NCBI GenBank assembly: GCA_041287245.1
Contig: JBEULP010000042.1
Coordinates: 1 to 50,065 of the forward strand
DNA from: Infirmifilum sp.
GTDB lineage: Archaea; Thermoproteota; Thermoprotei; Thermofilales; Thermofilaceae
Direction of reading: 5' to 3'
Length of the DNA: 50,065 nucleotides
Shown here: in pieces, positions 5,603 through 43,095 of the stretch
How positions within the stretch are numbered: the first letter of the stretch is position 1
How the letters are laid out: every line of letters starts with the position of its first letter
Position numbers and translations under genes: made by a program
The notes under the pieces: model-generated
What the model was told of the DNA's origin: nothing
Database searches by the model: none
The model's input: only the letters and a program-made list of their open reading frames with translations

Positions 5603-6049
5603 GTGGGAAACATAGACCTTGAAGGAGAAATTGAGAAAAAAATAAACCACGTGCTGCGGGGGGTTTCAGAGGCCCTTGAAGCCTACATACGTGACAAAGG
5701 ACTATCCATAGAAGACACTAAAGCGATCCTGGAGAAACTCGAGCCAAGTTTTAAACTATTGACAAAGAAGTGGACATTAACCATTATATATACTCTTCTT
5801 CTAACAGGCCCGTTATCCTTCAATAAGCTACACGAATTAACCAAGGTAAATAAAAGAAGCCTTTCACAGCGTCTTAAAGAACTCGAAAAGAACGGGCTTG
5901 TCCGAAGACAAGTGAGAACCCAGCCCCCGGTTACAACGGTGTATTTTTTAACTAAAACTGGGAGAGATACAGGTCTTCTAATAATTCCCTTAATATACTA
6001 CGTGGCGCGCTCAAGCTACGAGGGAGGCGTTGACAGGGCTTCAGGGTGA
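5603..6049 (+). CDS. HxlR-family winged helix regulator
   Basis: KKWTLTIIYTL...SFNKL...LSQRLKELEKNGLV...VYFLT pattern. Confidence 0.88.
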   Translation: MGNIDLEGEIEKKINHVLRGVSEALEAYIRDKGLSIEDTKAILEKLEPSFKLLTKKWTLTIIYTLLLTGPLSFNKLHELTKVNKRSLSQRLKELEKNGLVRRQVRTQPPVTTVYFLTKTGRDTGLLIIPLIYYVARSSYEGGVDRASG

Positions 6050-7074
6050 ACTTTAAGAAAAACTTTCCTTGGCCTTGGATCCCCCTGCCGAAAGTAGAGA
6101 GCTGTTCCATGACTCGCGAAGAGAACGTGGTCTCTTTCATCCGCGTTTAAGGAGAAAAGCAATGAGATGTCTCTTACATAGCTTTCAGAGCCGCTTAAAA
6201 TTATGACAAAGCCGGCGAGCTGGAAAATTCGCGGGTCGAATTCCCTAGGCAGCTGAGAGACAGCAATTAGGGAATACCCCCATTTCCTTATCTCCTTGTA
6301 TAAAGATAATAGATAGGGTGTGAACAGATGCGCCTCTTCCAGAACCACTATTTGTTCTAGATCGTTTCTAACGCCTCTCGATCTTTTCCAGCCTTGGAGA
6401 AGGAGAAGCAGAATCTGAATTGATATTTCAACCAGCTCGCGTGATACCATTAACGGGAACGTGAAGTAAACGCTTTCCTCGGCTATCGCTTCAATAGCAA
6501 GGTCACGCGAATATATTCTATTCAAATCATCATACAGCCTCTTAAGGTCTGGATCTTCTCTTGCCATCCTTTCAAGTGGAAGTAGGCTATTCTCACTGAT
6601 GCATTCTAATAAAAGCTCTCGGATCACGTTTCTCGCGCCTCTGAAACCGTAAACTATCTCTATATATCTGCTGAGCTCGCTAGCATATTCTTTTGTCTCC
6701 CACCCTGGTGTGTAAAGGAAGTCTATTTTATCTTGGGTTACTATAAACGTTTTTCTAAAAAGCCTCCTGTAGGCATCCTCGCCATGAGGATCTATGACCC
6801 ACGTTTTTACCCCTAAATTCCGAGCCTCGATAATTAGGTGCCTCGCCAGCGTGGATTTACCGCTTCCCGATGTGCCGAGGAGAACGCCATGGACATTTGG
6901 GAGAGAGAAAGGATTTATGTATATGTTTCTCCCCTTGTCGTCGACTCCCAGAAACAATCCTTGGGTTTCTTCGCGCGGCGGTATGACAGCCAGCGGCGAG
7001 AGTATGGGGATTAAATCTCCAGCTAGAACTAGAGTTTCTCTTCTCTCTAGAAGGTCACGTAGACGATCTAGCAC
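6016..7074 (-). CDS. VirB4/HerA-like P-loop ATPase (CedB/TedB-like)
   Basis: Walker A GTSGSGKS, IDPHGE, Walker B VLEEAH, RKWG arginine finger, SQ motif; downstream of membrane-protein genes. Confidence 0.82.
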   Translation of the reverse strand: MLDRLRDLLERRETLVLAGDLIPILSPLAVIPPREETQGLFLGVDDKGRNIYINPFSLPNVHGVLLGTSGSGKSTLARHLIIEARNLGVKTWVIDPHGEDAYRRLFRKTFIVTQDKIDFLYTPGWETKEYASELSRYIEIVYGFRGARNVIRELLLECISENSLLPLERMAREDPDLKRLYDDLNRIYSRDLAIEAIAEESVYFTFPLMVSRELVEISIQILLLLLQGWKRSRGVRNDLEQIVVLEEAHLFTPYLLSLYKEIRKWGYSLIAVSQLPREFDPRIFQLAGFVIILSGSESYVRDISLLFSLNADERDHVLFASHGTALYFRQGDPRPRKVFLKVHPEALSTPPS

Positions 7075-7081
7075 GAGACCA

Positions 7082-8152
7082 TTACTCTAAAGTTTTTAAG
7101 GCAAGCAAGTTCGGCGTAAAGTGAATCCCCATTCTTTCCAAGAGTTCCCGTGTTTCCTTCCTTGCGAGAAGCAGCCCGCTGGCAAGGAAGACTGGCTCTC
7201 TTCTCTCCCACCTGCGCCTCGAGGCAAAAAAGTACTTCTGGCTCTCGTGTAGCATGCTTAGCTTGTCGAGCGCCGTTCCAAGCTCATAAACCTTGTAGGC
7301 GTGGCTGTCGAGGCGTAGCGAGGCTTCCCAAGTTGCTGGTTTAATTTTAAAGGCGAGGAGGTCTATAGACCTGGCAGTAGCATAAAATACCCTTGCTCTG
7401 GTGAAAATTTCGCTGAGTGTGGGGTAGGCGAAAGTCACTGTAGTATTCTTTAACCCGTATATTTTAGCTCCTTTTTCGAGTTTAGCGTGATATATAGGCT
7501 GCCTTCTGGCTGTGAGCGCTACGAGTTCAAGTAACAAGACAACGATAAGGGGCGGGAAGATCCTCGTCGCGATAAACGTGAATACTAGGACTGGGAGATA
7601 TCTTCTAGCATCCGCCTTCCTCTCAATGAGCATATCAGGTCTTAGTAGACTTTTTACCTCAAGGCCCTCGAGGAGCTCCGCCTTGCATCCTAGTAGCTCT
7701 AACCCTCTCAAAAGGGATTCGTGTAGAGATAGGAGCGCCTGGTGAGTTTTTTCTGCGAACTCTATGCATACCTTCGTGACAATGTACATCTCTCCTCCTT
7801 TAATAAAGATTAAAAACTCCCCCCCACTTGTAAATGCTGTTGTGAAGAACGATAGCGAGCGGAGCCAGAACTCCTTCTCGTCCAGATCGTAGCAACCATG
7901 CTTACAATCGATCACGCGTAAGCCGAGGTATGCGCACGAGTGCCTCTTTGAAGCGTTATAGCAGAGCCTTTTTAAACACTTAATCTCTTCTAGCGGGCAA
8001 CCTGAATACATAGTGAATAAGACGAGTGTGTAAAGGTCATGGGCGATTAGAAGAAGTGCAAAAGAATATAAAAGATATGCCAGGATAGTGGAATGCGTCT
8101 GGATAACAATCCCTAGAATCAACATCAGGAAGAAGAGCGATACTCTACTCAT
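7082..8152 (-). CDS. Membrane protein, possibly the N-terminal/membrane partner of the VirB4-like ATPase
   Basis: Hydrophobic N-terminal pair and internal TM segment; 7 nt from the ATPase gene. Confidence 0.55.
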   Translation of the reverse strand: MSRVSLFFLMLILGIVIQTHSTILAYLLYSFALLLIAHDLYTLVLFTMYSGCPLEEIKCLKRLCYNASKRHSCAYLGLRVIDCKHGCYDLDEKEFWLRSLSFFTTAFTSGGEFLIFIKGGEMYIVTKVCIEFAEKTHQALLSLHESLLRGLELLGCKAELLEGLEVKSLLRPDMLIERKADARRYLPVLVFTFIATRIFPPLIVVLLLELVALTARRQPIYHAKLEKGAKIYGLKNTTVTFAYPTLSEIFTRARVFYATARSIDLLAFKIKPATWEASLRLDSHAYKVYELGTALDKLSMLHESQKYFFASRRRWERREPVFLASGLLLARKETRELLERMGIHFTPNLLALKTLE

Positions 8153-10595
8153 TCTTCATATCCCTTATTTTCCCGTAGATTATTCCCCATTTTCCCCTTT
8201 CACCAATAAGATCCCGTACCGCTTTTTTCCTATCTAGATAGATTTCTTTAGACAGCCTTAACGTGGCCGTATCGATTCCTTCGACTCGCTCGAGCGCTTT
8301 AAGTCGGTAATAAAGTTGTAGAGAAGCAAGCTTAAGGCCTTCACTGGCAGCGTAGATCCTGTTGGCCTTGAATATTTTATCGAGAAACTCCGGCTCCCTG
8401 AAGAACAATAAGGACAAAACCAGGTCTATCTTGTCTAAGCTGTCGCTCTCTTCTATTTTCTTGAGGTATTCGCTTGAGAAATCCTTTGAGAGCTTCACAA
8501 GATCCTCTGCAACGACCTCCTTGTATTTTCTCAAAAGGGCGTCGGCGACTTCCGGCTTCAAGGCTTTCAACAAGCTGTCAGAGTCCCTCACATTTAGCTG
8601 TTTGCGCGTGTAGACGTGATAACCAAGGAGAGAAGATATCTTGATCTGTGCTAAAAAAGTTGACGAGACTAGCTTCTTGTAAAGGTTAGAGCGAATTTTA
8701 CCTTCAAATCCTCTCAAGCCATACTTTGCCGCCCGGTACATACTCCTGAGATGTTTGTCTCTAGTTTTTTCGCTGAGCGCACGGAGCACGAATGTCGCTG
8801 GAGACTCGTTCAGTCCCTCTACAATTCTCCGAGATCCTCCATGAGAGCTAGGTTTTAACACTAACCGTCCCTCCGGGGTGAATATTTCGATGCGGATTAT
8901 CCCGCCCTTAGACCTTTTTAACCTGGCTGGCAGAGCAAAAAGCCTAAGAGGCGGGGTATGGCTACTCCTGGGCTTAGAGATACTCTGCTTTAAAAGAGAT
9001 AGAAGAGGATTATCATGAACCCCCGCTAGGCTTAATACTCCAGCACCTGTCACTATTGTCGAGAATAACGCGGCGTAAAGTATCACAAGCGGTTCAATTA
9101 TATTCCACGTGCTCACTAAAACCGACCCTAACACTTGTCTGATAATGGTCCACCCGCTAATGTACACGGGACAGTTCGACTCGTTCCACATACCATTACC
9201 ATAAACCCTCACCTTGACTACGGGGACGGGGGACGTTGAGTTACATTTGGAGGTTGAGAGGTGAATCGTGTACTCGTCAAAACTAGGAGCTCCTGTGCCT
9301 CTGACACGGAAAATATGCAAAAAACTCTCGGGTATTCCATTCTCTACCCTGGAGAGCCAGTTATCGTATTCTCGTAATGCTCTACCATACCATGATAGAT
9401 CTAACAGCTCACCAGGCGGTTTCTCAGTCCCTCTGATTAGGTGAACCTGACACTGTGTAGCATTCTTATCTAGAAGGCTCAGGTTATAGGATCCACCCCT
9501 AACGCTTATCTCAACTCCCTTCTCTAGATCCTTTGGGTCAAATTGAAAATCGACATAACCGTCTCCCTTTTCAGGATGAATAACATTATCGCCTACAAAA
9601 GCTATAACGTGTCCCGTGTGCCCCTCATAATTCTCGATAATATCGACTGGGAGAGTAACTACAACTGTAGTTGTGGATTGATCATAGATCCTAAAGAGAG
9701 ATGGCGACACCCAGCAGTTACAATAGCCGCCACTCTTAGTCTGATTAACATAGCAACAACCATTGATCGTGAAGTTTGTCCAGTAATCAGCTACCCACAC
9801 TGCGGTGTAGACGCCGGTGGGCAAGGATAATAAGGCCTCTTCCCTTACCTTTAGAACATAAAAACTTCCATTCTCGCCTCGCAGACCAACAAGAATAGCT
9901 GGCCGATAGATGGGACTGCCCGACCGCTCCACGACGTGAAAACGGATAAAGCCCAAACTCTTCGGCTGGATTAATAGGGGGATGTCAAGAGTTTGCATCT
10001 CTGGCACATTTGAAATGGATAGGGGTAACATCACCGAGAAGACAAGGAGAAAAAGCCAAAGAGGCAAGGTTACCTTCCGAACACGCGGGATGAGTTGAAG
10101 TGGAGTTAAGGATAAGAGGAGGTTAAAAAATAACTGGAATAGCGTTGAAAGCTTTAAGAGCAGCTTTGAAAGAAGCATCAAAGTTCCCACGTGAAAAGCC
10201 AATACGTCTAAGAAGCTTAAGATGGGATGCATGGAGTTCTGGAATGCCGGGAGGATTGAAAACGCCTCTCCTCCCCCCGCCCCGGCAAGAACAATCCCTA
10301 GGATAAGGTCTAAAAAAGCCACGGCAACCGCAGCTCCTATGATCTTGTTAAGATTATCTGCGAGCGCCAAGGATATGCTTTCAAGTTTTCTATAGACCTG
10401 GAAGAAAAGTGAGATGCCGACACTACTTATGATTCCCTGAAAAATCAGGATTAAAGAAGCTGAGAGGAATAACTCAACAATCGCCGATAGAGAGACGACT
10501 ATGGCGCGATTAAAACGTCCCAAAACCCAGTATAGTATGAGGAGGACTACTACAACGGCCAGACCTAGAGCCAGAGAGGATGGGAGGTCTATCAC
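8145..10595 (-). CDS. Large CedA/VirB6-like membrane protein with extracellular and basic cytoplasmic domains
   Basis: ~5 TM in the first ~195 aa ending LIPRVRKVTLPL, Cys- and sequon-rich middle, one further TM, Lys/Arg-rich C-terminus. Confidence 0.55.
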   Translation of the reverse strand: MIDLPSSLALGLAVVVVLLILYWVLGRFNRAIVVSLSAIVELFLSASLILIFQGIISSVGISLFFQVYRKLESISLALADNLNKIIGAAVAVAFLDLILGIVLAGAGGGEAFSILPAFQNSMHPILSFLDVLAFHVGTLMLLSKLLLKLSTLFQLFFNLLLSLTPLQLIPRVRKVTLPLWLFLLVFSVMLPLSISNVPEMQTLDIPLLIQPKSLGFIRFHVVERSGSPIYRPAILVGLRGENGSFYVLKVREEALLSLPTGVYTAVWVADYWTNFTINGCCYVNQTKSGGYCNCWVSPSLFRIYDQSTTTVVVTLPVDIIENYEGHTGHVIAFVGDNVIHPEKGDGYVDFQFDPKDLEKGVEISVRGGSYNLSLLDKNATQCQVHLIRGTEKPPGELLDLSWYGRALREYDNWLSRVENGIPESFLHIFRVRGTGAPSFDEYTIHLSTSKCNSTSPVPVVKVRVYGNGMWNESNCPVYISGWTIIRQVLGSVLVSTWNIIEPLVILYAALFSTIVTGAGVLSLAGVHDNPLLSLLKQSISKPRSSHTPPLRLFALPARLKRSKGGIIRIEIFTPEGRLVLKPSSHGGSRRIVEGLNESPATFVLRALSEKTRDKHLRSMYRAAKYGLRGFEGKIRSNLYKKLVSSTFLAQIKISSLLGYHVYTRKQLNVRDSDSLLKALKPEVADALLRKYKEVVAEDLVKLSKDFSSEYLKKIEESDSLDKIDLVLSLLFFREPEFLDKIFKANRIYAASEGLKLASLQLYYRLKALERVEGIDTATLRLSKEIYLDRKKAVRDLIGERGKWGIIYGKIRDMKNE

Positions 10596-11384
10596 CTATG
10601 CTCTCACCATTGTAACATAGATCGAGTCGAATACACTTGTCATTCCATAGCCTGCGGCTATTGAGAGGGCTAAGGCTACTGCCACGATCGTGGCACACTG
10701 GCCTAGAGAGATAGCTATATCGCTTGTTAGTCCAGCTATGTTCACCCAATCCAGAGGGTTTATCGGGGAGGGAACCTTTATTTTCTCGACCGTTTTTTCC
10801 GTCACGCTTCCACCATATATCACAGCGATGCTCGTTGACAGGTAAATGGCTAGGAGGGACGCGCCAAGCCTTCTTATTTTTGGAACTGGTAACAGGACAG
10901 AACCTATGGAGACAAGAAACGGTGCTATCGTCGAAAAAACTCTAGTAGCGAAGCTTAGATGCATAAAGAAAATAGCAACTATAGACAATTCAGTGGTAGA
11001 CCATCCTGTCGCCGCACCTAATACGCTTGAGAGAGGGCTTGTTAGGGGTGCTGCGGCGAGCACAGCACGCTCAGTTTGAACGTACAGGATTGTAGACACG
11101 GCTGTCTGGCTAGCTTCCCAGAAAACCGAGGCTGATGCATTGAGCCTTTCACTGACAAACTCTGGACTACCCAGACTAACACGTATGCCTGCAGCTGTGG
11201 CCACTGTATCAGCTATTGAGAAAACCAACTGCAAGATCAAAAGATGGGCCAAAACGTCCACCACTGCTTCAAAGTTGCTTATTGCTTCGCTTCTCCTACC
11301 TAAAAACCACTTCATACCACCGAGTGCAAGATAAAACAAGGCAGCTAGAGCAGCGCTAAGGTCGGGTAAAAGCATTGGACTCAC
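10596..11384 (-). CDS. CedA/TedA (VirB6-like) polytopic membrane protein
   Basis: 262 aa, 5-6 TM, IGSVLLPVPKIRRLGASLLA resembles the CedA P-x-R-x-G-A-S-L motif; context next to a VirB4-like ATPase. Confidence 0.65.
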   Translation of the reverse strand: MSPMLLPDLSAALAALFYLALGGMKWFLGRRSEAISNFEAVVDVLAHLLILQLVFSIADTVATAAGIRVSLGSPEFVSERLNASASVFWEASQTAVSTILYVQTERAVLAAAPLTSPLSSVLGAATGWSTTELSIVAIFFMHLSFATRVFSTIAPFLVSIGSVLLPVPKIRRLGASLLAIYLSTSIAVIYGGSVTEKTVEKIKVPSPINPLDWVNIAGLTSDIAISLGQCATIVAVALALSIAAGYGMTSVFDSIYVTMVRA

Positions 11385-11872
11385 CCGCTGAGAGAGGAGA
11401 GGATGAGTTGCCAGCCACGTCTCAAAAGTTTATCCATGATTTGCGAGACCGAGGCTATCTCTGGCACGCCTAGAGAGTTTAGAATTGAGATTATGAAGAA
11501 TAAAATAGGGATGACAGCTAAGGTTTCTACAGCGCGGATGAACTTCGAGATGGATAGACTCCTACCAAAACTTCCTCCTGTGATCCAGGAAAGAGCCGCG
11601 TCTAAAACAAGGAGTACAAAGCCAAGAATTCCAATGCCGAAGGTTATAGCCGCTAGAAGAGCAACTACGTCGACAAAGGGTTGAAATAACTTCGAGATCA
11701 AATCTTGCGAGTCTATGAGAAGAGGCAATTGATATAAAATGCCTACGACCGCCAATTCCTCATCAATCTTTTTCCATTTGTAGCTACCTGTCCCAAGTTT
11801 TATGCTTCTCTTTAAGGTTGTCTCGTAAACTATCTGCATCAGTTTGAGTTTAACCTTCTGTAAGAGACTCAT
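11381..11872 (-). CDS. VirB2/CedA1/TedC-like pilin candidate
   Basis: Basic N-terminal leader, then two hydrophobic helices joined by a Gly/basic loop (SWITGGSFGRS...KFIR); first gene of the operon. Confidence 0.55.
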   Translation of the reverse strand: MSLLQKVKLKLMQIVYETTLKRSIKLGTGSYKWKKIDEELAVVGILYQLPLLIDSQDLISKLFQPFVDVVALLAAITFGIGILGFVLLVLDAALSWITGGSFGRSLSISKFIRAVETLAVIPILFFIISILNSLGVPEIASVSQIMDKLLRRGWQLILSSLSG

Positions 11873-11879
11873 CACCTAT

Positions 11880-11956
11880 CACTTCTTTAGAGTATAAAAG
11901 AAGGAGTGTTTACGCACATCCCTCATGACGGACTTAAAAACTATGGTAAAGAAGTG
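11880..11956. promoter_or_regulatory. Divergent promoter with inverted 10-bp motif TAAAGAAGTG
   Basis: CACTTCTTTA at 11880-11889 and TAAAGAAGTG at 11947-11956, each just downstream of a TATA-like box on its own strand. Confidence 0.6.
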
Positions 11957-11968
11957 TCAGGGGATACT

Positions 11969-12685
11969 ATGACGGAGGTTATAGCTATTGTTTCCGGCAA
12001 CAAGGGAGGCGTTGGGAAAACCGTAATAGCAAGCCTAATCGCATATCATCTCGCGATTGTAGGTAAAAAAGCACTTGTCATAGACCTTGGCGAGAGGGGC
12101 AGCAGCACGTTATTGCTTTTAGGAGAGGATCCCGGCCACCCCTATTTGAGTGATTTCTTTATAGGTCGCGCCACATGGAGTGATGTAATTGTGCAGTCAA
12201 CCTTTACGCCGAATCTTCTCGTTGCCCCCTCGACCGGAGAAATTGGTCCTGTGGATCCCACTTCACTTGAATATCTGATTGACCGTGTGAGCAAACATGT
12301 GGACTTTATTGTACTGGACTTCCCATCATATCCAGGCACGTTATACGACCCGCTTTTAGACCTAGCACGTATACATGTTGTTGTCTTTAACCCGGACGCT
12401 TTGTCATACTATTCGGTCGTCGGATGGCTCAAAGAAAAGGAGAACCTTAGAAAAAAGCTGGTGCTACCGGTTTTAAACAAATATCTGGTTTTCCTAGCCG
12501 AGTGGAAGGAGCGGGCGGTCGACGACCTTGGCGTCGTTTTCACCTTGCCTTTCGACTCCGCACTCGCATTCACAGCTACGAGAGATATAGAGGAGGCATA
12601 CAACAATGCTAGCTCTAGCGTTAAGAAGAGCGTTGAGCTTCTAGCCTATAGGCTTCAAAAGCCGCTTTTAAAGGTGTCTGGATGA
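11969..12685 (+). CDS. ParA/MinD (TadZ/CpaE-like) ATPase
   Basis: Deviant Walker A KGGVGKT, VIDL, DFIVLDFP, VLNK; ATG 11969 preferred over GTG 11906. Confidence 0.9.
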   Translation: MTEVIAIVSGNKGGVGKTVIASLIAYHLAIVGKKALVIDLGERGSSTLLLLGEDPGHPYLSDFFIGRATWSDVIVQSTFTPNLLVAPSTGEIGPVDPTSLEYLIDRVSKHVDFIVLDFPSYPGTLYDPLLDLARIHVVVFNPDALSYYSVVGWLKEKENLRKKLVLPVLNKYLVFLAEWKERAVDDLGVVFTLPFDSALAFTATRDIEEAYNNASSSVKKSVELLAYRLQKPLLKVSG

Positions 12686-13032
12686 GTTTTAGAAGACCAT
12701 TTTCTTCTATTAAGGAGGATGAAAAAGAGGATCGTTCCCTGCCTTTGCCCACCCTCAAGGAAGATGTGAAAAATGTAGAAAAAACTGCTCCTGATGAGCC
12801 AAGCAAGGATGAGCTTTCCGTGGGGGTGAAAAACTTAGAGTTACTTCTCAAAAGCCTTGGATATGAAGTGAACCTGGCTGAGCGCATTGTCCAGAGGATG
12901 CGTGAGATAGACGGGGAGATCACAAGGCTAGACGAAAACATCGCGCAGCTGGAGCGGCAGAGAAAGAACCTGCTCATGGAGCGGCAGAGAATAACGGAAG
13001 TAATTAAAACCTTCGCGGGAATAAAAGTATGA
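12682..13032 (+). CDS. Small coiled-coil protein
   Basis: Charged N-terminus, heptad C-terminus; ATGA overlaps with both neighbours. Confidence 0.75.
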   Translation: MSFRRPFSSIKEDEKEDRSLPLPTLKEDVKNVEKTAPDEPSKDELSVGVKNLELLLKSLGYEVNLAERIVQRMREIDGEITRLDENIAQLERQRKNLLMERQRITEVIKTFAGIKV

Positions 13033-14192
13033 AAGCTATATTAAAAGGGTTGTATAATAAGCGCGGACGCAAGGACGAAGCACCTTCAATGATACCAGTA
13101 AATGAACTTCTCCCAGCCCAATCAGCCATAATTTTGAAAAATTCCTTCGGCTTTCTCGCGAGATCAGACGGAAAGATCGAGATTATTCCGATTAGAGAGC
13201 ATCCTGTCTGGAAAAAGTTTTCGCCGCTATTTCTCGCCAGCGAGGTGGAGGAAATCTGGTTGTTCGAGGGGAAAACTGTGGCAACCATAAAGAACTTCGG
13301 TAGGATCAGCATTAAGGGATCACCGTCTCCCGAGGAACTTGAGAACCTAATCATCAGTATAATAGCTGCCACTGGGGTAAAGGTTGACATGAGAAAGCCT
13401 CGTGGGGTTGTCGACGTAGATGATTGGCGTGTATCCATTCAGCTATCTAGCGGTGGACAAACACAAATCGTGGCAACACGACTCTCCAGCGTTCCGCCTC
13501 TAAAAGAGCTGATCGACCCTATCACGGCAGCGAGGTTGATGGTTCTACTTTTAAGACCCGCTGTGATTGTGATTCTAGGCCCACCAGGCTCGGGAAAATC
13601 CACGTTGCTGAATAGCTTGGTGGGAGAGATCGCAAGGATTTTCCCCAATCTGCACCTAGCTGTTGTTGAAAAATACCGTGAGCTCGTATTCAAGGAAGGG
13701 TGGTTCTCTTGGATCTTAAGCGAAAACCTGGTAGACGGTGTTAGATGGGCTATGCGCTACTTTAGGCCTGATCTAATCGTGGTGGGGGAGATAATGGCGG
13801 AGGACTTCTGGAGCATTGTGGAGCCTAGTCGAAGCGGTTTGCCGACGATCACGACGTTCCACTCACCAACGATTAGAAAAGCGGTGAAAGTGCTCTCGGA
13901 CTCTCTTAGAGCACAACTAGGCTATGGCGACGAGAATAGTGTTCTGCAATATGTTGACGTGTTTATTCAGACTCAAAAAAGAGTTACCCCCAGGGGCATA
14001 GAAAGAGGGGTCGAAAGCATCTTCATAAGCGACGGGCAAAGACTCATCCCCTTCTACGCCGCGGGAAAATCCATGTCTGACGAAGAATTCCTCCAAGCGT
14101 TACCGGAGCAAATATACGTCGGCCCAACAGTAAAAATTCTCACCCAGCTCCTTTCCGAATATGGGGTCTCGGCCCGTGAATACCGCGGTTGA
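13029..14192 (+). CDS. VirB11/TadA(CpaF)-family secretion ATPase
   Basis: Walker A GPPGSGKS, Asp-box-like VEKYREL, RPDLIVVGE, His box TTFHS. Confidence 0.88.
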   Translation: MKAILKGLYNKRGRKDEAPSMIPVNELLPAQSAIILKNSFGFLARSDGKIEIIPIREHPVWKKFSPLFLASEVEEIWLFEGKTVATIKNFGRISIKGSPSPEELENLIISIIAATGVKVDMRKPRGVVDVDDWRVSIQLSSGGQTQIVATRLSSVPPLKELIDPITAARLMVLLLRPAVIVILGPPGSGKSTLLNSLVGEIARIFPNLHLAVVEKYRELVFKEGWFSWILSENLVDGVRWAMRYFRPDLIVVGEIMAEDFWSIVEPSRSGLPTITTFHSPTIRKAVKVLSDSLRAQLGYGDENSVLQYVDVFIQTQKRVTPRGIERGVESIFISDGQRLIPFYAAGKSMSDEEFLQALPEQIYVGPTVKILTQLLSEYGVSAREYRG

Positions 14193-15577
14193 TTCCTATT
14201 ACGCAAGAAGAGGATGTAAAACAGATCTTTGAAGGGGCTGGGCTTATCCCCCGCTCGGGACAGGTAGAGGTAGCTCAGGCTATCCGCGGAGTAGAGGGTG
14301 ATGTGCTGCTCGTCGCGCCTACAGGCTGGGGGAAAACGCTCGCCGTGCTTGCAGCCCTAAAAACACGTTTACCAGTGCTTTGGCTAGTCAGATCCCTCGA
14401 AATTGGGCGTAGAGTAAGCGAGGACGCTTCTCGCCTTGGCCTTAAGGCGTTTGTCGCAGCTGGAAGAGCTAAGACTTGCCCCTACGCGCGCGTCGGAGAT
14501 GTAGACGAGTTCTGCCGGCTACACCGTAGCCGTTGCCCCTACTTCCTGGAGCTTTTGAAAAAAGGAGTTGGCGAAGCCTGGAGTTACGAAGAACTCCCGC
14601 CGACTATCTGCCGATACTACGCACAGGACGTTATAGCGGCTGATGTTGTCGTGCAAAACTATTTTAGACGCGTGGCTCACAGGTTTGAAACAGTTGTTGT
14701 AGATGAGGCGCACAACCTACTTAGGCCTGTGATCCACGAGGTGAGGGGGCTTGAAGAGGCTATTGACGAGCTGGCCCAGCTGGAGCCGACTCTCGCGTCA
14801 CAAGTAAGGGACATTTTGGAGCGGGAAGGAGTGATTAACATCCCACTCGAGCTAGCCTGGGATGTCTTAGAGTTATACAGGGAACGCCTCTTAAAGGGAA
14901 CGTTGATGTCTCCCCTTGCTAGACTTCTAAAAGCCGGCATAAGGGGGGACATAGTATATAGGGAGGCGGGGCGTGTTCAGATTTACCATACGATTCGCAT
15001 CCCTCAAGCGAGGAGGATCTATATTAGCGCTACAATCCCCGAAGAGGCTTCGAATTTTTTTCATGCCGCGGTGATACGCGTCCCCATCTCTCCTCGTCCT
15101 GCACAGATCACCGACTATTTAACTTCAAAGTACGGGGAGGAAACTATCGGAGGATATAGTCATTTGCTGTGGACGTTGAAGAAGAAGTACACGCGAATTG
15201 TTGTTTTCACCACCGAGAGGCTTGCACGCAGGCTGCATGCTGATTTTTACGAGGAACGCCTGCCGCCGGATTGGAGGGGGGTTGCTCTCTTTAATATCTA
15301 CGGGCGGTTTGCAGAAGGTGTTGACATCCCCGCAGACGCCGTCGTGATTCTCGGCGCACCCTTTCTCCCCCCAGAAGTAACAGAAAAAATAGGGAAGTAT
15401 TATAGACGCATAGGCTTAGACGCCGACGCCGCCCACTGGCTGCCCATGGTCACCGCTGTATTACAGGCCATTGGCAGGGCAACAAGAGAGCCCGGCGCAA
15501 CCCCCGATATTATCCTCGCAGACTATCGATTCAAAAGGTACATGAGAAAGTTTGAGCCATACTTAGTCTTCGATTGA
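14189..15577 (+). CDS. Compact XPD/DinG-like SF2 helicase with Fe-S cysteines
   Basis: Q motif RSGQ, APTGWGKT, CPY..FC..CPY..ICRYY, DEAH, SAT, EGVD, QAIGRATR. Confidence 0.9.
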   Translation: MIPITQEEDVKQIFEGAGLIPRSGQVEVAQAIRGVEGDVLLVAPTGWGKTLAVLAALKTRLPVLWLVRSLEIGRRVSEDASRLGLKAFVAAGRAKTCPYARVGDVDEFCRLHRSRCPYFLELLKKGVGEAWSYEELPPTICRYYAQDVIAADVVVQNYFRRVAHRFETVVVDEAHNLLRPVIHEVRGLEEAIDELAQLEPTLASQVRDILEREGVINIPLELAWDVLELYRERLLKGTLMSPLARLLKAGIRGDIVYREAGRVQIYHTIRIPQARRIYISATIPEEASNFFHAAVIRVPISPRPAQITDYLTSKYGEETIGGYSHLLWTLKKKYTRIVVFTTERLARRLHADFYEERLPPDWRGVALFNIYGRFAEGVDIPADAVVILGAPFLPPEVTEKIGKYYRRIGLDADAAHWLPMVTAVLQAIGRATREPGATPDIILADYRFKRYMRKFEPYLVFD

Positions 15578-17085: not shown

Positions 17086-17315
17086 ACGCGACGCCTTTTT
17101 AGAAGCTATACACTTCATTTAAATCTTTTTGCATAGCTGGGAACTCCCACTCTTTATGAGCGTGGAGGCTCGTGCAGCAATAGCCAGTTCTTATGTCTAA
17201 TGGGTGCACGTCTAAGCATTAATCAAACCCTGGACATACACGCGGCTAAGGACTGAGTGATGGTTAATGCTTGGCCCTTGAGACCCCAAAATACCGTTCA
17301 ATTAGACAAGATAGG

Positions 17316-17406
17316 CGGGCCCGCCGGGACTTGAACCCGGGACCTACGGCTATCCACACTTTTACCTTCCGCAGGCCGCCACGCTTCCTAGCTACGCCAC
17401 GGGCCC
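17316..17406 (-). tRNA. tRNA-Arg(GCG) with 17-nt intron at 37/38 (17352-17368)
   Basis: GGGCCCG/CGGGCCC acceptor, GCGGC-CTGCGG|intron|A-GCCGT, CCGGGTTCAAGTCCCGG. Confidence 0.93.
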
Positions 17407-37053: not shown

Positions 37054-37422
37054 TTAACTTTCCCCGGGAAAAACAATCCAGACAACACCGTCTTTCTTAA
37101 CAAGGGTGAGCGTGATACGACCCTTGATTTCTTGAGCCTTCCTAACCCTGATGGATCCCGCGAGAACGGTTTCGTTTATTCTAGACAGGCACATTCGGGT
37201 GATGGGGGTTGCGGATACGAGAGTGCCGTTGGAAACATAGACGTCTAGAGCATACTCTGCTGTTAGTGTTGTGCTATTTGGCGAGACAAGCAGATAACAG
37301 ACATCGCGCAGCAGTGCAACATTATTAACCGTGGGGACGTTGTAGAATACCAGCCAATAGCCGAGCACCGAGACGCTAACAACGACGTCGAATAGAACGA
37401 GAACCGTTTCATCCACCGGCAA
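37054..37422 (-). CDS. Minor pilin-like protein
   Basis: N-terminal hydrophobic helix, beta-rich body with N-glycosylation sequons; operon context. Confidence 0.55.
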   Translation of the reverse strand: MPVDETVLVLFDVVVSVSVLGYWLVFYNVPTVNNVALLRDVCYLLVSPNSTTLTAEYALDVYVSNGTLVSATPITRMCLSRINETVLAGSIRVRKAQEIKGRITLTLVKKDGVVWIVFPGES

Positions 37423-37984
37423 TCACCAGGCCGTTACCCCACTTGTCTGTTAACCGACATGGCTGGTTTTCTCGTAGAGCAAGGATTGTCCCGTTTATGT
37501 AGTCGTGGGGACACTGTGCGTAGAGCCGCACAGATACGGCTATGATATATGGATACTCGGGTATCTTGAAGCTTTGCATGGCCGTGATGTTATAGAGGCG
37601 TAGTATTCTTCCTGTGTAAGCGTCGACTCTAAACCCGACAAGCCTGTACGCATAGTTTAGAGCGAATTCGTCGGAGCCTACATTGGTTTGTATAACCCAT
37701 CTACATTCTAGCCGTCCCTCATCGTATCTCGAAAAGTTGAGAAACTGGGAGAGAGTATAGCTTTTAACAGTGACCGGCGAGATAAACTGGGGAAGTATTT
37801 GAAATATAGCGGGAGCCCTAGCTGGATCCTCGCACAGGACTCGTGCGGCGGTTAGAACTGCGATATGCGCGTCTTCGCCCCTGTATTGCACACGATAATA
37901 GTTGTCGTCAGTTTGTCTCACTACGAGTAGGCTTAACAGAACTACCGCTAATAGTCCAATACTTGCCCTTCTCTTCACACTCAA
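37409..37984 (-). CDS. Minor pilin-like/secreted protein
   Basis: KRRA then hydrophobic stretch (class III-like signal). Confidence 0.55.
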   Translation of the reverse strand: MSVKRRASIGLLAVVLLSLLVVRQTDDNYYRVQYRGEDAHIAVLTAARVLCEDPARAPAIFQILPQFISPVTVKSYTLSQFLNFSRYDEGRLECRWVIQTNVGSDEFALNYAYRLVGFRVDAYTGRILRLYNITAMQSFKIPEYPYIIAVSVRLYAQCPHDYINGTILALRENQPCRLTDKWGNGLVIAGG

Positions 37985-38259
37985 CCCCTCCAGGTGAAGG
38001 TTATTATCTTAGGCTCAGAGCCACACCAGACTATGACAGAGCTGCTCGGATAGTCTGGAAGAGGCTCGGTAGCGTTAAGGCTTTTTAATACCTCTGAAAC
38101 GTCGCTGCAGTTCGCGTATATCATAGTATAAGCTGCTATGACAGCTAGGTTTCTTTCTTGTACTACCTGGGCTGAGATAGAATATAGTTTATGGCTGGTT
38201 GTTCGAGCCAGGGTTAATAGGAGGATAAGTGCCATTATAGCCGCGGATATCGTTCTCAC
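37981..38259 (-). CDS. Small secreted/minor pilin-like protein
   Basis: N-terminal hydrophobic helix; 4-nt overlaps with neighbours. Confidence 0.55.
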   Translation of the reverse strand: MRTISAAIMALILLLTLARTTSHKLYSISAQVVQERNLAVIAAYTMIYANCSDVSEVLKSLNATEPLPDYPSSSVIVWCGSEPKIITFTWRG

Positions 38260-38504
38260 GGCTGAATCACCTCTACCCGTGAGTTATTCTTGCAGATGGT
38301 GAGGCTGTAACCGTAGATTGTTCCATTGAATGTGATCAGGTGATCTGAGAAGATCTGCACGCACGAACCATTCGGCATAAGTCGAGGTGTGCTGGTTAGC
38401 TGGTCACTCAAAGCCGTTTGCATGGTTATAGAAAAGCTAATAACTGAAAGGAGAAGCAATACCTCGAAAATGCTAAGAGTTGATTCTTCTAGAGCTTTCA
38501 ACAT
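38256..38504 (-). CDS. Minor pilin-like protein
   Basis: MLKA|LEESTLSIFEVLLLL class III-like start. Confidence 0.55.
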   Translation of the reverse strand: MLKALEESTLSIFEVLLLLSVISFSITMQTALSDQLTSTPRLMPNGSCVQIFSDHLITFNGTIYGYSLTICKNNSRVEVIQP

Positions 38505-39031
38505 CTCTTCACCTGGAACACTTTCACCTTCACCTCTGTTGGACCTTCAATGCTCGCCTGGAAGCCGCAAATGCTTAGAAAGGGGCTGTAGACTTTATAG
38601 GATAGGAGAGAGGGTTCTAGGCAAATCCTGTCTGTCCACCCGTTAAACGTCGCGTTGTATACAATGAGAGTCGCGTTGCTCGCTATCCACATCGGCTTCA
38701 AGCTAACGAGGCACCTGTCACCCTCGCGCGTAATAGAGAACCACGACCCATTAATAGCTGTTACAGCACATTGTGAAAAAACAAGGACGGGCTTCTTAAA
38801 CCCGAAAACCACCAGGTTGTTTATCTTCAACACGCAGTCAGTCGAGTTCAGGTAGACCTGAGAGTTAAGGTCGACCATATCAGCCTGCGGCAAGATATTT
38901 AATGTGTGAGTAGTTATACGGAGCGGAACGGTGGGATTTTGAAGCAGGGCAAGAATACTGCCCAGAACCGTGATTGTGAAGATAGAGAGGAGCGCCGTCT
39001 TCACCTGGTCGCTTAAAGCCTCTCTATCCAT
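38498..39031 (-). CDS. Pilin-like protein
   Basis: MDREA|LSDQVKTALLSIFTITVLGSILALL; ATG ~39031 preferred. Confidence 0.55.
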   Translation of the reverse strand: MDREALSDQVKTALLSIFTITVLGSILALLQNPTVPLRITTHTLNILPQADMVDLNSQVYLNSTDCVLKINNLVVFGFKKPVLVFSQCAVTAINGSWFSITREGDRCLVSLKPMWIASNATLIVYNATFNGWTDRICLEPSLLSYKVYSPFLSICGFQASIEGPTEVKVKVFQVKRC

Positions 39032-41175
39032 GGCACTAACACCACTTTTGACGTTTGACAAGGAATATAGACGACTTCGATCATTTGGCTAACCGGGTTG
39101 AAAAACGGGATCTCTGCTTGGAATGGATACGGTACAATAGTCTCCCATAAGGTGGAGAGATTTTTTCTGGACAAGACCCTTATATATAATGAGCCTAGGC
39201 AGCTTGTTTCATTCAGAGAAGCCAGTATTTTGCTCAGTGTTAGGTTCTCGCCGAGGACAAGAGGACCCTCCGCGTAGAGCTTAATATTCGTCCCGGACTG
39301 GTTAAATATTAAGGTAAAGGTGACTGGAACCACGGGAAGCTCTAAGCGGGTCTCAGGTATGATGAGCATGCCACCCCAAGTGGCGAAGATCTCTATTGAG
39401 GAGAGGCGCGTAATGTTTTGCAGGCGCGAATAGTCTATGACTAGAAGCCCCTGGGATGCCGGGACCGAGGCAATAACATGTCCTGCTTGTGCTGTGACGT
39501 TATAGTTTTCCCAGTTTAGATTCGTGTTGAAGCGTATTGAGAGGCTGGTCTTCGAGTATTGTATGCTTAATATCCTTATCTTGGGAACTATCGTCCTGGC
39601 GAAGAAGAAAGAGCTATTTAGCTTTAGAAATACTGTTATATTTGGAGCGTCGGGAGCTGCGATTGATAAAAGATAGTACCTGGTGTTGTTTATTAAAAGC
39701 TGTGGTAGAGAGGGAGACGGTGTCCTTATCTTATTAGACTTGGAGCCTATAGCCACTGTTTCTCCGAAGGGGTTGCCCACCAAGAGAGTCCCGTTGACAC
39801 CGTTAAAGATGATAAGCCGGTTGCTCGAGGGATCTACTGCGACGACACTCGCGTTTGTCACAATAGAATAAACGCCTGGTTTTATCTGCTGGAAGTGTGT
39901 CCCATTGGTTGGAAGGAAGTCCATCCCCGGCAGAATGTATGCAGTTGAGTTGTTCCCTCTCAGTGAATAAACCGCCGAAATCTGTAGGTTTGTGTTTAAA
40001 GATCCTGAGAGAGTAGCGCTGAGAACCTTCGCGCCATTCACAAGCCAGTATATGAAGTATCCCGTAGCTGTCCATGCCGCGGATAACGTGACTTTAACGT
40101 AATTGGAAGCCCCAAACCCCTTCTGCGCGTAGGCTGTTACCTCTATCCTCTCGTTATAGAGCTCAATGTTCTTTACTGCTACGCTGCCACTAGCCGGGAC
40201 CTGAGAGGAGAATATAGTTCTCTTAACGCCTGCAGGAGTCACGGCGAAAACCTGCAAGAGATATTGAGGGCTGCCCGTGAAAGAATATTGTAACGTGAGG
40301 TTGTATACGCCAGTGTAATAGGTTTTACTTGAACAAGTTGCAGAAGAAGAGTTTGAAGCATTAAAGTAACTCCATAGGCAGTTTATAGGTTGATCAGAGG
40401 CCACGACGGTAAGAGTTATAGTGGCGGGGGCGTTAATGCTGAAGATGGTGTTCTCAGCTAACTGCACCGTAAAAACATTGGTTGATGGTGGCCCCGAGAA
40501 GGACAGCTGAGCGCCTAGCTGGCCTGGAGACCCTGTGAGTTTAACTATTCCATAGACAGAACAATTTGTGTTCGCTAGTATCATGGCCCCCAAGGTTATA
40601 GTAAACGTCTTCTTAGGTGTTGGAATAGAAAAGCTCGCTGTGGCAGTCTTGGCATCCTGCTTGTCACCTGCGAGCGGATAGTCATAGGCGTAAGCATAGG
40701 CTTGCTCTGTAGACGCGGTTGCACTGCCTGCGGAGAGGATCGTCGGCCCCGCGTAGGCTTGCAAGTCAAAGTAGGGTGGGATTTCGCCTATACCCGATGT
40801 AAACTTTATTAAGCCCCCATTTACGCCTGTGGCACTCGTCGCGCTCAAAGTTACGAGCTGTTGGCTAATGGTGTAAGAGCCGGAGGCAGTGGCTGTGAGC
40901 GTCGCCCAAGCAGAGGCTAGACTGGGTGCGCTTACCGTATATATGAGGTCTAGGTGTGAGTACAGGTTCGCTGTATATGTTGTGCCACCGGCTGAGAACT
41001 GAGAGCTTTTGGATACAGTTTTTGTCTCGGTACCAGAGCGGCCGTTGCCGGGTGCAACCTTAATGTTGATGCTGAGGGTATCGCCAAGCGAGAACGCCAA
41101 GGGGGTATTTATTAGAATCAGCGTTAGAATGAACACTAAGCTGGTTTTCCTCATGTCTCCACCCCGATTAAGCAA
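39013..41175 (-). CDS. Large secreted Ser/Thr-rich adhesin-like protein
   Basis: MRKTSLVFILTLIL..AFS signal peptide; beta-rich, many NxS/T sequons. Confidence 0.7.
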   Translation of the reverse strand: MLNRGGDMRKTSLVFILTLILINTPLAFSLGDTLSINIKVAPGNGRSGTETKTVSKSSQFSAGGTTYTANLYSHLDLIYTVSAPSLASAWATLTATASGSYTISQQLVTLSATSATGVNGGLIKFTSGIGEIPPYFDLQAYAGPTILSAGSATASTEQAYAYAYDYPLAGDKQDAKTATASFSIPTPKKTFTITLGAMILANTNCSVYGIVKLTGSPGQLGAQLSFSGPPSTNVFTVQLAENTIFSINAPATITLTVVASDQPINCLWSYFNASNSSSATCSSKTYYTGVYNLTLQYSFTGSPQYLLQVFAVTPAGVKRTIFSSQVPASGSVAVKNIELYNERIEVTAYAQKGFGASNYVKVTLSAAWTATGYFIYWLVNGAKVLSATLSGSLNTNLQISAVYSLRGNNSTAYILPGMDFLPTNGTHFQQIKPGVYSIVTNASVVAVDPSSNRLIIFNGVNGTLLVGNPFGETVAIGSKSNKIRTPSPSLPQLLINNTRYYLLSIAAPDAPNITVFLKLNSSFFFARTIVPKIRILSIQYSKTSLSIRFNTNLNWENYNVTAQAGHVIASVPASQGLLVIDYSRLQNITRLSSIEIFATWGGMLIIPETRLELPVVPVTFTLIFNQSGTNIKLYAEGPLVLGENLTLSKILASLNETSCLGSLYIRVLSRKNLSTLWETIVPYPFQAEIPFFNPVSQMIEVVYIPCQTSKVVLVPWIERL

Positions 41176-42578
41176 AGCTTCAAAGTCTCACCCTCAAGGT
41201 AGACGTCTAAAGCAAACTCGCCTGTGTTTGGTAGAACCCTTGTTTTCCCGGTGAGAATGTTCCAAGATGAGTTGTAATCGATGAAATCTACCCCCTTAGC
41301 GACCCCGTTAATGTCGTACGCCTTTCCTTCGAAGTATGCCTTGAGGTAGTCCAGGTCTAGAGTGACATCGTAGCAACCGCCTTGTGGCGTGGTGCCGGGA
41401 ACGTTAACGTACTCTTTACCGTTTAGGTATAGAAACTGGATGGAGGCGTGCCAGCTTTTAGTGCATATCTGCAGGCGCACTTTCCCCGATGTGGCTGGTA
41501 GGATAACCATGAGCCGCGCTATCGAGTCGGTGGTAATGTATAGGCACTGCCCCTCGAGCGTGACGTTATAGCGATCCGCTAAGCCGAACTTTCTCCTGTA
41601 GTCGTAGAAGGGGTCCTCCACCCTCTTGAAGGGTGAACAGTTACCACATACGAGAACCGTCTCCACCTGGTACTTTGAGATTAGAGCAAGCCTCTCACCT
41701 ATCGCGCCCCCGCCTCTCACATTGAAGCGCAGCAACGTGGGAGGCAGGGTTGTGTTGGAAAGCCAGCTTGGAACCTCCCAGCCGGCGATGCACAAGTAGT
41801 GCGTTGAATTATAGTCGCGGCACCCGGTGGGGTACTTCTCGCTCACGGTCATGCTTAGCTCAAGAGTAGCGTTTTCAGGAGCCAGCAGGGTTAGAAAGCC
41901 CTGCCTTAAAGAGGCGTTTACGCTAGCCTCGATTGGAAGATAGAAGTGAAGGACAAAGTACCTGTGCCCGTTTACCGTAACGTTTAAGTCGTCTTGCACG
42001 GGCAGTGTCGCGTTCAAGGCGAAGTATTCTTCAATATTCCCCCTAGCGAGAACAAGAGTATCAGAACATATCAAGGAGTCGTTTCCCGCTATTAGGCAAG
42101 TAGAGTTAAATTGAAGGTTCGAGCCTATCTTTGCCTTGAGCCTCTCGAAGCCGCGGATGAGAGTACTGTTGACGTATACAGGCGCTGTAGCATTAATCCA
42201 GAGGACGGCATAAGCCTTTATAAAATGAAGTTCGATAAAGCCATCATCTGTGACCGTAATATTTAGCTCTTTCTCTACTGGCTCGTAGACGTCAAAGGGT
42301 TGCGGCTGGAGAAGTAGGTGTGAGCCGTTGGGAACACGCAGCGTCAGCGGCAGGAGGTGGTCAGACCCGTTTATTATGACGCGCGCGTTCGCGACGTTCG
42401 CCGCTATAAAAACGGTTCTTGTTACGGGAGTCCTTATGTTAGAAGATTTTAACAGTGGCCCTGAAGATTCGCCTAGGTGTTGAGGCTTTAGGCTCTCGTA
42501 AAGCAAAAGTGTGACGAACCCCAGGGCGAGTGCCAAGAATAATAGTTTTTTCCTATTCCTCATCGCTATGACAACCAT
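41151..42578 (-). CDS. Membrane-anchored surface protein with beta-sandwich repeats
   Basis: RNRKK plus TM anchor; ANARVIING / APVYVN PEGA-like repeats. Confidence 0.65.
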   Translation of the reverse strand: MVVIAMRNRKKLLFLALALGFVTLLLYESLKPQHLGESSGPLLKSSNIRTPVTRTVFIAANVANARVIINGSDHLLPLTLRVPNGSHLLLQPQPFDVYEPVEKELNITVTDDGFIELHFIKAYAVLWINATAPVYVNSTLIRGFERLKAKIGSNLQFNSTCLIAGNDSLICSDTLVLARGNIEEYFALNATLPVQDDLNVTVNGHRYFVLHFYLPIEASVNASLRQGFLTLLAPENATLELSMTVSEKYPTGCRDYNSTHYLCIAGWEVPSWLSNTTLPPTLLRFNVRGGGAIGERLALISKYQVETVLVCGNCSPFKRVEDPFYDYRRKFGLADRYNVTLEGQCLYITTDSIARLMVILPATSGKVRLQICTKSWHASIQFLYLNGKEYVNVPGTTPQGGCYDVTLDLDYLKAYFEGKAYDINGVAKGVDFIDYNSSWNILTGKTRVLPNTGEFALDVYLEGETLKLCLIGVET

Positions 42579-42659
42579 TTACATTATAAAGCAGGGCTAG
42601 CAGTAACCACCTTATTTGCCAGTCTTAAAAACCTCGACGAATACCCTTTCGGTGAAAAG

Positions 42660-43058: not shown

Positions 43059-43095
43059 AGGATCTGGGCTATGCACGCGCAGGGGAGGAAGACAG

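Follow-up and report, generated by a model that had tools for sequence, protein, structure and literature searches.

What kind of machine is encoded where one operon resembles the conduit of a conjugation apparatus and its divergent neighbour the motor of a surface filament? Positions 6016 to 15577 of a 50,065-nucleotide stretch of DNA from Infirmifilum sp. (Thermofilaceae; contig JBEULP010000042.1 of assembly GCA_041287245.1), which was analysed at its full length and is hereafter referred to as the window, raise this question. To our knowledge, no conjugation machines other than Ted and Ced are known to have been domesticated, and the origin of the DNA that they carry and the motors that serve them are matters on which this locus bears. 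By sequence comparison, the left arm of the locus is a Ted-type system; the right arm appears to encode the cytoplasmic part of a machine of the type-IV-filament class, to which a helicase gene has been joined. The explanation that we prefer, and to which we give somewhat better than even chances, is that one common control region would couple a contact filament to a Ted-type conduit equipped for DNA processing, in a manner resembling Ups with Ced.

A previous reading of the letters alone (the sequence-only reading) had described two compact operons diverging from a 96-bp spacer. The coordinates of the open reading frames (ORFs) agree with that description and give five genes on the minus strand and four on the plus strand, designated A to I as follows.

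Gene A, 6016–7074, minus strand: 352 aa, C-terminal HerA/VirB4-type ATPase half of a split TedB
Gene B, 7082–8152, minus strand: 356 aa, N-terminal half of the split TedB/VirB4-like protein
Gene C, 8145–10595, minus strand: 816 aa, extended TedA paralog
Gene D, 10596–11384, minus strand: 262 aa, TedA (VirB6/CedA-like) polytopic membrane protein
Gene E, 11381–11875, minus strand: 164 aa, probable TedC-like (VirB2-class) pilin precursor
Divergent intergenic spacer, 11873–11968, no strand: two A/T-rich TATA-like boxes
Gene F, 11906–12685, plus strand: ParA/MinD-family ATPase, probable start at ATG 11969
Gene G, 12682–13032, plus strand: small coiled-coil protein between the ParA and ATPase genes
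Gene H, 13029–14192, plus strand: 387 aa, FlaI/CpaF-class (T2SSE superfamily) ATPase
Gene I, 14189–15577, plus strand: short XPD/DinG-family helicase with four Cys in Fe-S positions

On the minus strand, E and D overlap by 4 nucleotides, D and C abut, C and B overlap by 8 nucleotides, and B and A are separated by 7 nucleotides; each of the plus-strand junctions (F/G, G/H and H/I) is a 4-nucleotide overlap. The spacer measures 96 bp if E starts from ATG 11872 and F from ATG 11969, the codon (M22) at which the F orthologs begin to align, and 30 bp with the longest ORFs. We infer that its two boxes, TATAAAA at 11893–11899 and TTAAAAA near 11945, could act as promoters. No conserved motif emerged from a genus-wide intergenic alignment, in which the spacer was poorly conserved. 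A crude hydropathy count placed transmembrane (TM) segments in B, C, D and E; Pfam assigned no family to B, C or D and none of note to E.

As the anchor for comparison with Ted we used a true Ted locus, L039, which encodes a 153-aa protein with the same sequence as PDB 8dft chain A across 112 residues (E 7.5e-64), together with an adjacent 310-aa TedA, a 685-aa TedB and ParA. TedA and TedC families were gathered from 15 loci, and family–family comparisons were made by hhalign. The parts of the Ted paper covered here (Beltran et al. 2023, PMC9905601) describe TedC as a pilin whose signal peptide is cleaved at AVA|QA, TedA as the VirB6/CedA-like product of a 7-TM gene just downstream of TedC, TedB as a VirB4-like protein encoded a few genes upstream, and ParA, HerA-like and 'Rad50' genes close to the Ted genes; they mention neither VirB11 nor Thermofilum, and Thermofilaceae has 0 mentions in them. 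Two other reference loci were tried and discarded, the first being a HerA-NurA locus and the second (L032) not a clean Ted locus; two TedC candidates had no PDB match. TedB-like genes gave 3–11 matches per genome in some Pyrobaculum- or Vulcanisaeta-type genomes (G101, G094 and G080), some with internal stops, which suggests mobile or decaying copies there.

The D family aligned with the TedA family (15 sequences, including the P. calidifontis-type TedA) over nearly its full length (Prob 98.4, E 1e-14, 233 columns), while four cross-family controls stayed below 3 and reversed TedA scored 0.2. On this alignment, D is a TedA homolog. The B family matched residues 64–314 of 695 of the TedB-long family (11 members, including the P. 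calidifontis-type TedB) with Prob 98.1 and E 1.2e-13, and the A family matched residues 343–693 with Prob 100 and E 2e-51. A was also recognised by Pfam as HerA/DUF87 (7.3e-8) and, in a profile search of PDB, as HerA (4.6e-7) and the VirB4 C-domain 4ag5 (3e-6); sequence searches of PDB with the E, D and B profiles returned nothing useful. In G035, a genome from the same taxonomic order with the same arrangement of genes (E-like, D-like, C-like, VirB4-like), a single 754-aa protein spans B at 18–373 (E 3e-25) and A at 394–753 (E 2e-59). The split is not an assembly error, because it recurs in all six congeneric loci and in G029. These comparisons show that B and A are, by homology, one TedB/VirB4 gene split in two, rather than the separate membrane partner and VirB4 that had been proposed; the locus thus presents a natural split of a VirB4-type motor at a domain boundary.

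Residues 2–202 of C aligned with residues 26–221 of D (Prob 95.5, E 1.5e-8), and C proved homologous to the giant proteins encoded at the same position in G035 (96.5) and G029 (94.6). By these alignments C is an extended TedA paralog. Its AlphaFold2 model, with a predicted local distance difference test score (pLDDT) of 69, opens with five long helices in an N-terminal membrane domain, followed by a beta-rich domain (214–465), a TM helix and a C-terminal domain made of helices. Conservation is highest in the beta domain, which carries 7–10 N-glycosylation sequons (7 NxS/T, with 7 Cys, in that of C itself); this middle domain is likely to be extracellular, as judged from its sequence. The best Foldseek hit of the C model had an E of 4e-3, and the hits were beta-sandwich, pilin and adhesin leads only.

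E consists of a long leader, about 55 residues and weakly hydrophobic within the genus, followed by two hydrophobic helices joined by a GGSFGRS loop; its predicted model is all-helical, and its gene lies directly upstream of that of the TedA homolog D. Members of the family from outside the genus carry plain signal peptides ending in ALA|QP or ALA|QE, like TedC. A smaller E family (7–34 sequences) showed no significant match to TedC (Prob 8). Adding the family of the Vulcanisaeta TedC homolog (94.5 to TedC) raised the score to 74.4, and an E family of 47 sequences reached Prob 92.1 against the combined TedC and Vulcanisaeta family (E 6.1e-7, 121 co-linear columns; reversed control 1.0), or 87.8 when the G013-type members were left out. 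E is, in addition, similar to the beginning of D (Prob 73.8), which echoes the CedA1–CedA relation noted in the Ted paper (PMC9905601). Pfam found no pilin family in the relatives of E, nor in true TedC, and the Atlas leads for E were all below 0.9 (T4SS_pilin 0.85, TrbC/VirB2 0.83). Taken as sequence evidence of moderate weight, these results indicate that E is probably a TedC-like pilin. The hhalign matches to TedA, TedB and, more weakly, TedC bear out the Ced/Ted-like character claimed for the left arm, and extend Ted-type systems to Thermofilaceae and neighbouring uncultured families.

Is the ATPase of the right arm then the VirB11 partner that the sequence-only reading had made of it? Pfam assigned H to T2SSE (1.5e-8). 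In PDB, the H family profile matched FlaI (7.5e-23), the archaeal GspE-like ATPase 2oap (2.4e-20) and CpaF (3.5e-17) over both domains, whereas DotB, VirB11 and PilT were matched at about 1e-12 to 1e-13 over the C-domain only, the VirB11 entries ranging from 8e-13 to 1.4e-10. The NCBIfam scores of H were 39.6 bits for TrbB and 35.1 bits for VirB11, against cut-offs of 304.55 and 249.95. By these measures, H is an ATPase of the FlaI/CpaF class and not a member of the VirB11 family. Full-length H relatives occur throughout the order, and we fetched 14 loci around such relatives. A ParA homolog adjoins the H homolog in 13 of them, and a ~130-aa 1-TM protein and a ~400-aa multi-TM T2SSF-like protein are encoded after it in 11; six (L062, L065, L066, L067, L073 and L075) have a divergent arm encoding a ~820–1000-aa protein and five small N-terminal-TM, pilin-like proteins. 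Relatives of H are thus normally found with a platform protein and pilin-like genes.

The other right-arm genes agree with their first assignments as ParA/MinD and an Fe-S-type XPD/DinG helicase. F matched Pfam AAA_31 (1.5e-12) and ParA (2.6e-8) and NCBIfam minD_arch (5.9e-12), and has the deviant Walker A motif SGNKGGVGKT of ParA/MinD proteins. G gave weak coiled-coil-type Pfam matches only; a small ORF occupies its position in 11/14 related loci, 4 of these ORFs being similar by BLASTP. I matched Pfam Helicase_C_2 (1.1e-11) and has the features of the XPD/DinG family, namely intact Walker A, DEAH and motif VI, with four Cys between motifs I and II. In an alignment of eight sequences C97, C109 and C141 were invariant (8/8), as were DEAH and motif VI, and C116 was present in 7/8.

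Helicase orthologs are spread over the order: of 120 genomes of the class, 26 have one, whereas the 60 genomes from two Thermoproteales-type families have none. In G024 and G037 the orthologs abut, by coordinates alone, a CedD-like ATPase gene, CedD being described in the parts of PMC11823120 and PMC11868833 covered here as the VirD4-like importer ATPase of Sulfolobales; in a Pyrobaculum-type genome, a shorter relative of I precedes a HerA-like ATPase gene. The locus offers a candidate dedicated helicase added to a Ted-type set. The genome of the window (G000) has a CedD-like gene on its contig 61 (14280–15071; L031:6215–7192), the product of which, a soluble ATPase of 325 aa, aligns with the C-half of the CedD model (4.9e-36); it is orthologs of this gene that stand beside the helicase in G024 and G037. 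A second helicase copy, 59% identical to I, lies on contig 1 of G005 (1374622–1375998), about 9 kb from a gene for a 33%-identical H paralog (1385049–1386044).

Gene order in other lineages bears out the proposal that the two arms belong together. In G029, a minus-strand operon encodes an 833-aa protein, five small N-terminal-TM proteins and C-like, B-like and A-like proteins; it is divergent from a series of genes for ParA, a 98-aa protein, H and proteins of 142, 362 and 102 aa, and E-like and D-like genes follow convergently. The interleaved Ted-like and filament genes of G029 (L046 and L062) lie on contig 1 at about 106–124 kb, the five pilin-like genes sharing an operon with the C-like gene and the split TedB. 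On an 8.3-kb contig of G013, genes for ParA, a 109-aa protein and H are followed by two Ted-like genes, one of them E-like (family Prob 99.0) and the other D-like (91.6); the E-like protein belongs to a small family, two members of which stand near the main E family. In Vulcanisaeta distributa (L035:4443–16709), an operon beside radA contains genes for TedA (95.9), TedC (94.5), a type-IV-pilin-like protein, a 6-TM protein, a T2SSE ATPase, ParA and TedB.

The occurrence of a filament-type ATPase gene beside Ted genes is, on gene order, recurrent, because it is seen in G029, G013 and V. distributa; the parts of the Ted papers covered here do not discuss it. Functional coupling of the two arms is likely, since the ParA–coiled coil–H set adjoins Ted-like genes in three lineages (this genus, G029 and G013) and a T2SSE ATPase gene stands in the Vulcanisaeta Ted operon. 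Gene order thus ties Ted-type genes to a module with a filament-type ATPase in three independent cases. Two points of the sequence-only reading fare less well. That Ted systems come without VirB11 holds in so far as the covered parts of the Ted paper name no VirB11, but the Vulcanisaeta Ted operon already includes a T2SSE ATPase; and the pairing of ParA with Ted is a linkage already described there (PMC9905601).

If H is a filament motor, where is its platform? Three entries at 37–44 kb of the window provide candidates.

N-terminal-TM proteins of 475 aa and 720 aa and five small N-terminal-TM proteins, 37054–42578, minus strand: divergent from the platform genes
132-aa 1-TM protein, 42660–43058, plus strand: BLASTP 1e-4 to the protein encoded after H in relatives
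389-aa T2SSF-like platform protein, 43024–44193, plus strand: BLASTP 2.5e-12 to the protein encoded after H in relatives

The architecture of this region matches the divergent arm of related filament loci, and the filament-type locus (37054–44193) has no ATPase gene of its own. In Atlas, the 389-aa protein matched an archaeal T2SSF cluster by structure (TM-score 0.81) and scored 0.94 in the feature search; Pfam T2SSF was found in one of 12 members of its family, at 0.065. The platform gene lies 29–57 kb from H in 5/5 complete congeneric genomes. In G003 and G002, genes for ParA, the ATPase, a 130-aa protein and the platform are still together, next to topoisomerase VI genes; G003 has, besides this separate ParA–ATPase–platform locus, a Ted-like operon with ParA and the helicase and without G and H. 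Complex prediction for H with the 389-aa protein scored 0.34, the best of 3 controls scoring 0.00, which lends weak support: the mark was reached by 116/157 solved complexes and 2/215 mismatched pairs, and scores of 0.60 or below comprised only 18/157 solved complexes and both of the mismatches that passed. The runs agreed in at least 92% of contacts, with a partner pLDDT of 76. The 132-aa and 389-aa proteins are likely to be the membrane partners of H, encoded 29 kb away, and the five small proteins are putative pilins by their N-terminal TM segments. A survey of type IV filaments (PMC13705601), in the sections covered here, describes for Thermoproteota a pilin-rich subsystem (4G) to which a MinD-like ATPase and a large protein resembling an adhesin belong.

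According to the explanation that we prefer, the E protein would be exported and cleaved, and D, C and B+A, acting as membrane channel and motor, would assemble it into a VirB2-like pilus. ParA and the coiled-coil protein would position H, which would most likely power a type-IV-filament machine by way of the distant T2SSF-like platform; the contact pili made by that machine would play a part similar to that of Ups pili for Ced in Sulfolobales. The genes of the H module would be expressed from a promoter region common with the Ted-type operon, such that both machines come up together, and the XPD-like helicase would unwind or process DNA handed over or taken in. It is likely that cells take up and process each other's DNA by means of the whole set. 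The locus also supplies concrete partner proteins for the study of DNA transfer and of the pilus.

Several observations weigh against this explanation. The proposed coupling, co-expression and DNA exchange are drawn from gene content and gene order. DNA import is shown, in the portions of the papers covered here, only for Ced in Sulfolobales and for no Ted system. The window contains no TedD/CedD gene, and the best NF053655 match of G000, on another contig, scored 123 bits against a cut-off of 600. The E–TedC link is moderate, with a Prob of only 68.8 against the Pyrobaculum-type TedC family alone; profile comparison, one of the checks that the sequence-only reading had proposed, upheld the Ted homology, but Foldseek, another, gave no match at E ≤ 0.001 for the models of E (best E 1.3) and C. 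Between the 720- and 475-aa proteins and the large proteins that relatives encode in their filament loci, no homology was detected (Prob ≤ 0.4). A ParA tree was unresolved at depth and leaves Ted-type and filament-type origins of F undecided. The gene order in G013 fits a direct H–Ted partnership as well. Finally, judged from the sequence tree described below, H may have changed its role, because the H clade of this genus and genus g4 lacks an adjacent platform and stands apart from the platform-linked ATPases.

The last two observations bear on a different role for H. The Ted-type machine itself might have recruited it as a traffic ATPase in the manner of VirB11; H would then dock on the split TedB and the TedA-like proteins and form, with ParA and the helicase, a composite two-motor machine, which is how the sequence-only reading took the locus. 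Besides the three lineages in which ParA–coiled coil–H is joined to Ted-like genes and the T2SSE ATPase inside the Vulcanisaeta Ted operon, this is favoured by G013, in which the ATPase gene leads directly to the E-like and D-like genes with no platform gene between, and by the fact that VirB11 belongs to the same ATPase superfamily as H. A FastTree phylogeny of 21 ATPases likewise grouped the H of this genus with platform-less copies of genus g4 (support 0.94), apart from a platform-linked clade that includes the G003 and G002 copies. However, the H family is much closer to FlaI/CpaF than to VirB11 and falls far under the NCBIfam VirB11/TrbB cut-offs, G003 keeps a Ted-like operon without H, and G018 has Ted-like genes and no H match at 1e-8. 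Moreover, H is the sole self-match in G000 at E ≤ 1e-8. Since the platform homolog and pilin-like genes have been kept in the genus and G000 has no other T2SSE ATPase at 1e-8, the distal set would need H. We consider recruitment to the Ted-type machine, the main rival to our explanation, doubtful. Its most far-reaching form is a two-motor, relaxase-free DNA-transfer machine of Thermofilaceae and relatives, in which ParA, the coiled coil, the FlaI/CpaF ATPase and the Fe-S helicase are welded onto a Ted-type conduit, with H as an independently evolved VirB11 analogue and the helicase supplying or receiving single-stranded DNA; this we think unlikely.

Does the Ted-type set handle DNA at all? It could instead be a contact or adhesion pilus through which proteins, lipids or signals, and not chromosomal DNA, are exchanged, the helicase being an unrelated repair enzyme that shares the operon. 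Cultured Thermofilaceae depend on factors from other archaea, which we count in favour of such a role. The large, glycosylation-rich beta domain of C, with its predicted sequons and its weak adhesin- and pilin-like fold leads, would also suit it, as would the distribution of the helicase, which in the 26 of 120 genomes mostly lies away from the Ted-type locus. In addition, the covered parts of PMC9905601 present no Ted system with a demonstrated substrate. Against this, the homologous Ced system imports DNA according to the parts of the papers covered here; the helicase gene overlaps that of H in 5 genus genomes, which suggests translational coupling; helicase relatives abut CedD-like or HerA-like ATPase genes; and Thermoproteales Ted loci carry RadA-like and HerA-like genes. 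A DNA-free adhesion pilus therefore appears to us improbable.

How does the locus compare with the systems that it resembles? With Ted of Thermoproteales, as described in the parts of PMC9905601 and PMC11823120 covered here, it shares homologs of TedA, TedB and, moderately, TedC, a pilin gene directly upstream of the TedA-type gene, ParA alongside, and a chromosomal location without a relaxase. It differs from Ted in that TedB is encoded by two genes, a second, 816-aa TedA paralog has a beta-rich domain, the locus has no TedD, RadA-like or HerA-like gene and is joined to genes for an ATPase of the FlaI/CpaF class, a coiled-coil protein and an XPD-like helicase, the host belongs to Thermofilaceae, and the pilin leader is long and weakly hydrophobic in the genus. 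A search for papers on Ted-type genes (VirB4/TedA/TedB/CedB) of Thermofilum or Infirmifilum found none, although supplements, which lay outside the search, may list Thermofilaceae homologs.

Ced with Ups in Sulfolobales provides the working model of an importer derived from a type IV secretion system (T4SS) that acts with a type-IV-filament system for cell contact. Further likenesses, from the parts of the sources covered here, are a channel paralog, CedE, beside CedA (PMC11868833) and a helicase gene next to the ups genes (PMC13705601). The present locus shows no similarity to the NCBIfam Ced models beyond the P-loop, and its filament motor gene, in contrast to Ced and Ups, stands physically beside the importer genes. 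Bacterial VirB/D4 T4SSs with VirB11 share with it VirB2-, VirB6- and VirB4-class parts and a ParA (there VirC1), and VirB11 falls in the same superfamily as H; they differ in that H falls outside the VirB11 family and that Pfam and NCBIfam detected neither a VirD4 nor a relaxase gene in the locus, other VirB components not being searched for individually. Finally, a ParA/MinD gene next to a FlaI/CpaF-class ATPase gene is a feature both of the archaeal filament subsystem 4G, in the covered sections of PMC13705601, and of bacterial Tad (TadZ/CpaE with TadA/CpaF), a likeness by description. In H relatives this pair is accompanied by genes for a platform, for a number of small pilin-like proteins and for a large protein with an N-terminal TM segment, whereas in this genus the motor module lies 29–57 kb from the platform and pilins and is joined to a helicase gene.

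Could the locus be the remains of a conjugative plasmid that had integrated, or an island of anti-phage defence? Its setting bears on both. The window consists of core chromosome, with genes for EF-1beta, TFE, topoisomerase VI and tRNA enzymes; it contains one tRNA-Pro gene and, by a Pfam scan, no integrase. In six 20-kb stretches from congeneric genomes searched by tblastn, the cluster always lies between the same geranylgeranyl-reductase and GFO-oxidoreductase genes (6/6), so that the arrangement is not due to chance. All nine genes are present in four of the six (G005, G007, G006 and G001). G004 has eight, the coiled coil being undetected, and G003 has seven, with G and H absent and the helicase gene directly after ParA. 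Identities across the congeners were 28–36% for C, 43–60% for D and 54–68% for A, compared with 71–81% for the flanking reductase.

The C homolog search showed the cluster to be single copy in the genus. Among 41 genomes, including that of the window, 10 had a match to C: it gave one match in 7/7 other genus genomes, and was found in 9/22 of the family and 0/18 of other sampled families. D has 24 homologs among 5.8 billion proteins, and E has 26 in the same set and 18 among 1.84 billion representatives.

Two observations speak for a plasmid remnant or a defence island: some Pyrobaculum-type genomes have several copies of TedB-like genes, and PADLOC matched A to mad8 (6.9e-21) and I to type IV DinG (1.9e-24). 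No other component of MADS or of CRISPR type IV was matched by PADLOC, however, and the Ted matches are far stronger and extend across five genes. We reject a mobile element on the fixed synteny, with single-copy occurrence at one housekeeping-flanked position in the genus, and on the core-gene surroundings, Pfam having found no integrase, relaxase or replication gene at the cluster; we reject a defence island as well, the matches being those of a generic ATPase and helicase only. Either origin is, in our estimate, highly improbable, and the view of the locus as chromosomal stands.

Two further features of the window adjoin or lie near the cluster. A gene for an HxlR-family regulator (5603–6049, plus strand) converges on gene A with a 34-nucleotide overlap and is conserved there in 5/6 congeneric loci. 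The tRNA-Pro(CGG) gene (17314–17406, minus strand) was called at 93 nucleotides, a length that leaves room for an intron.

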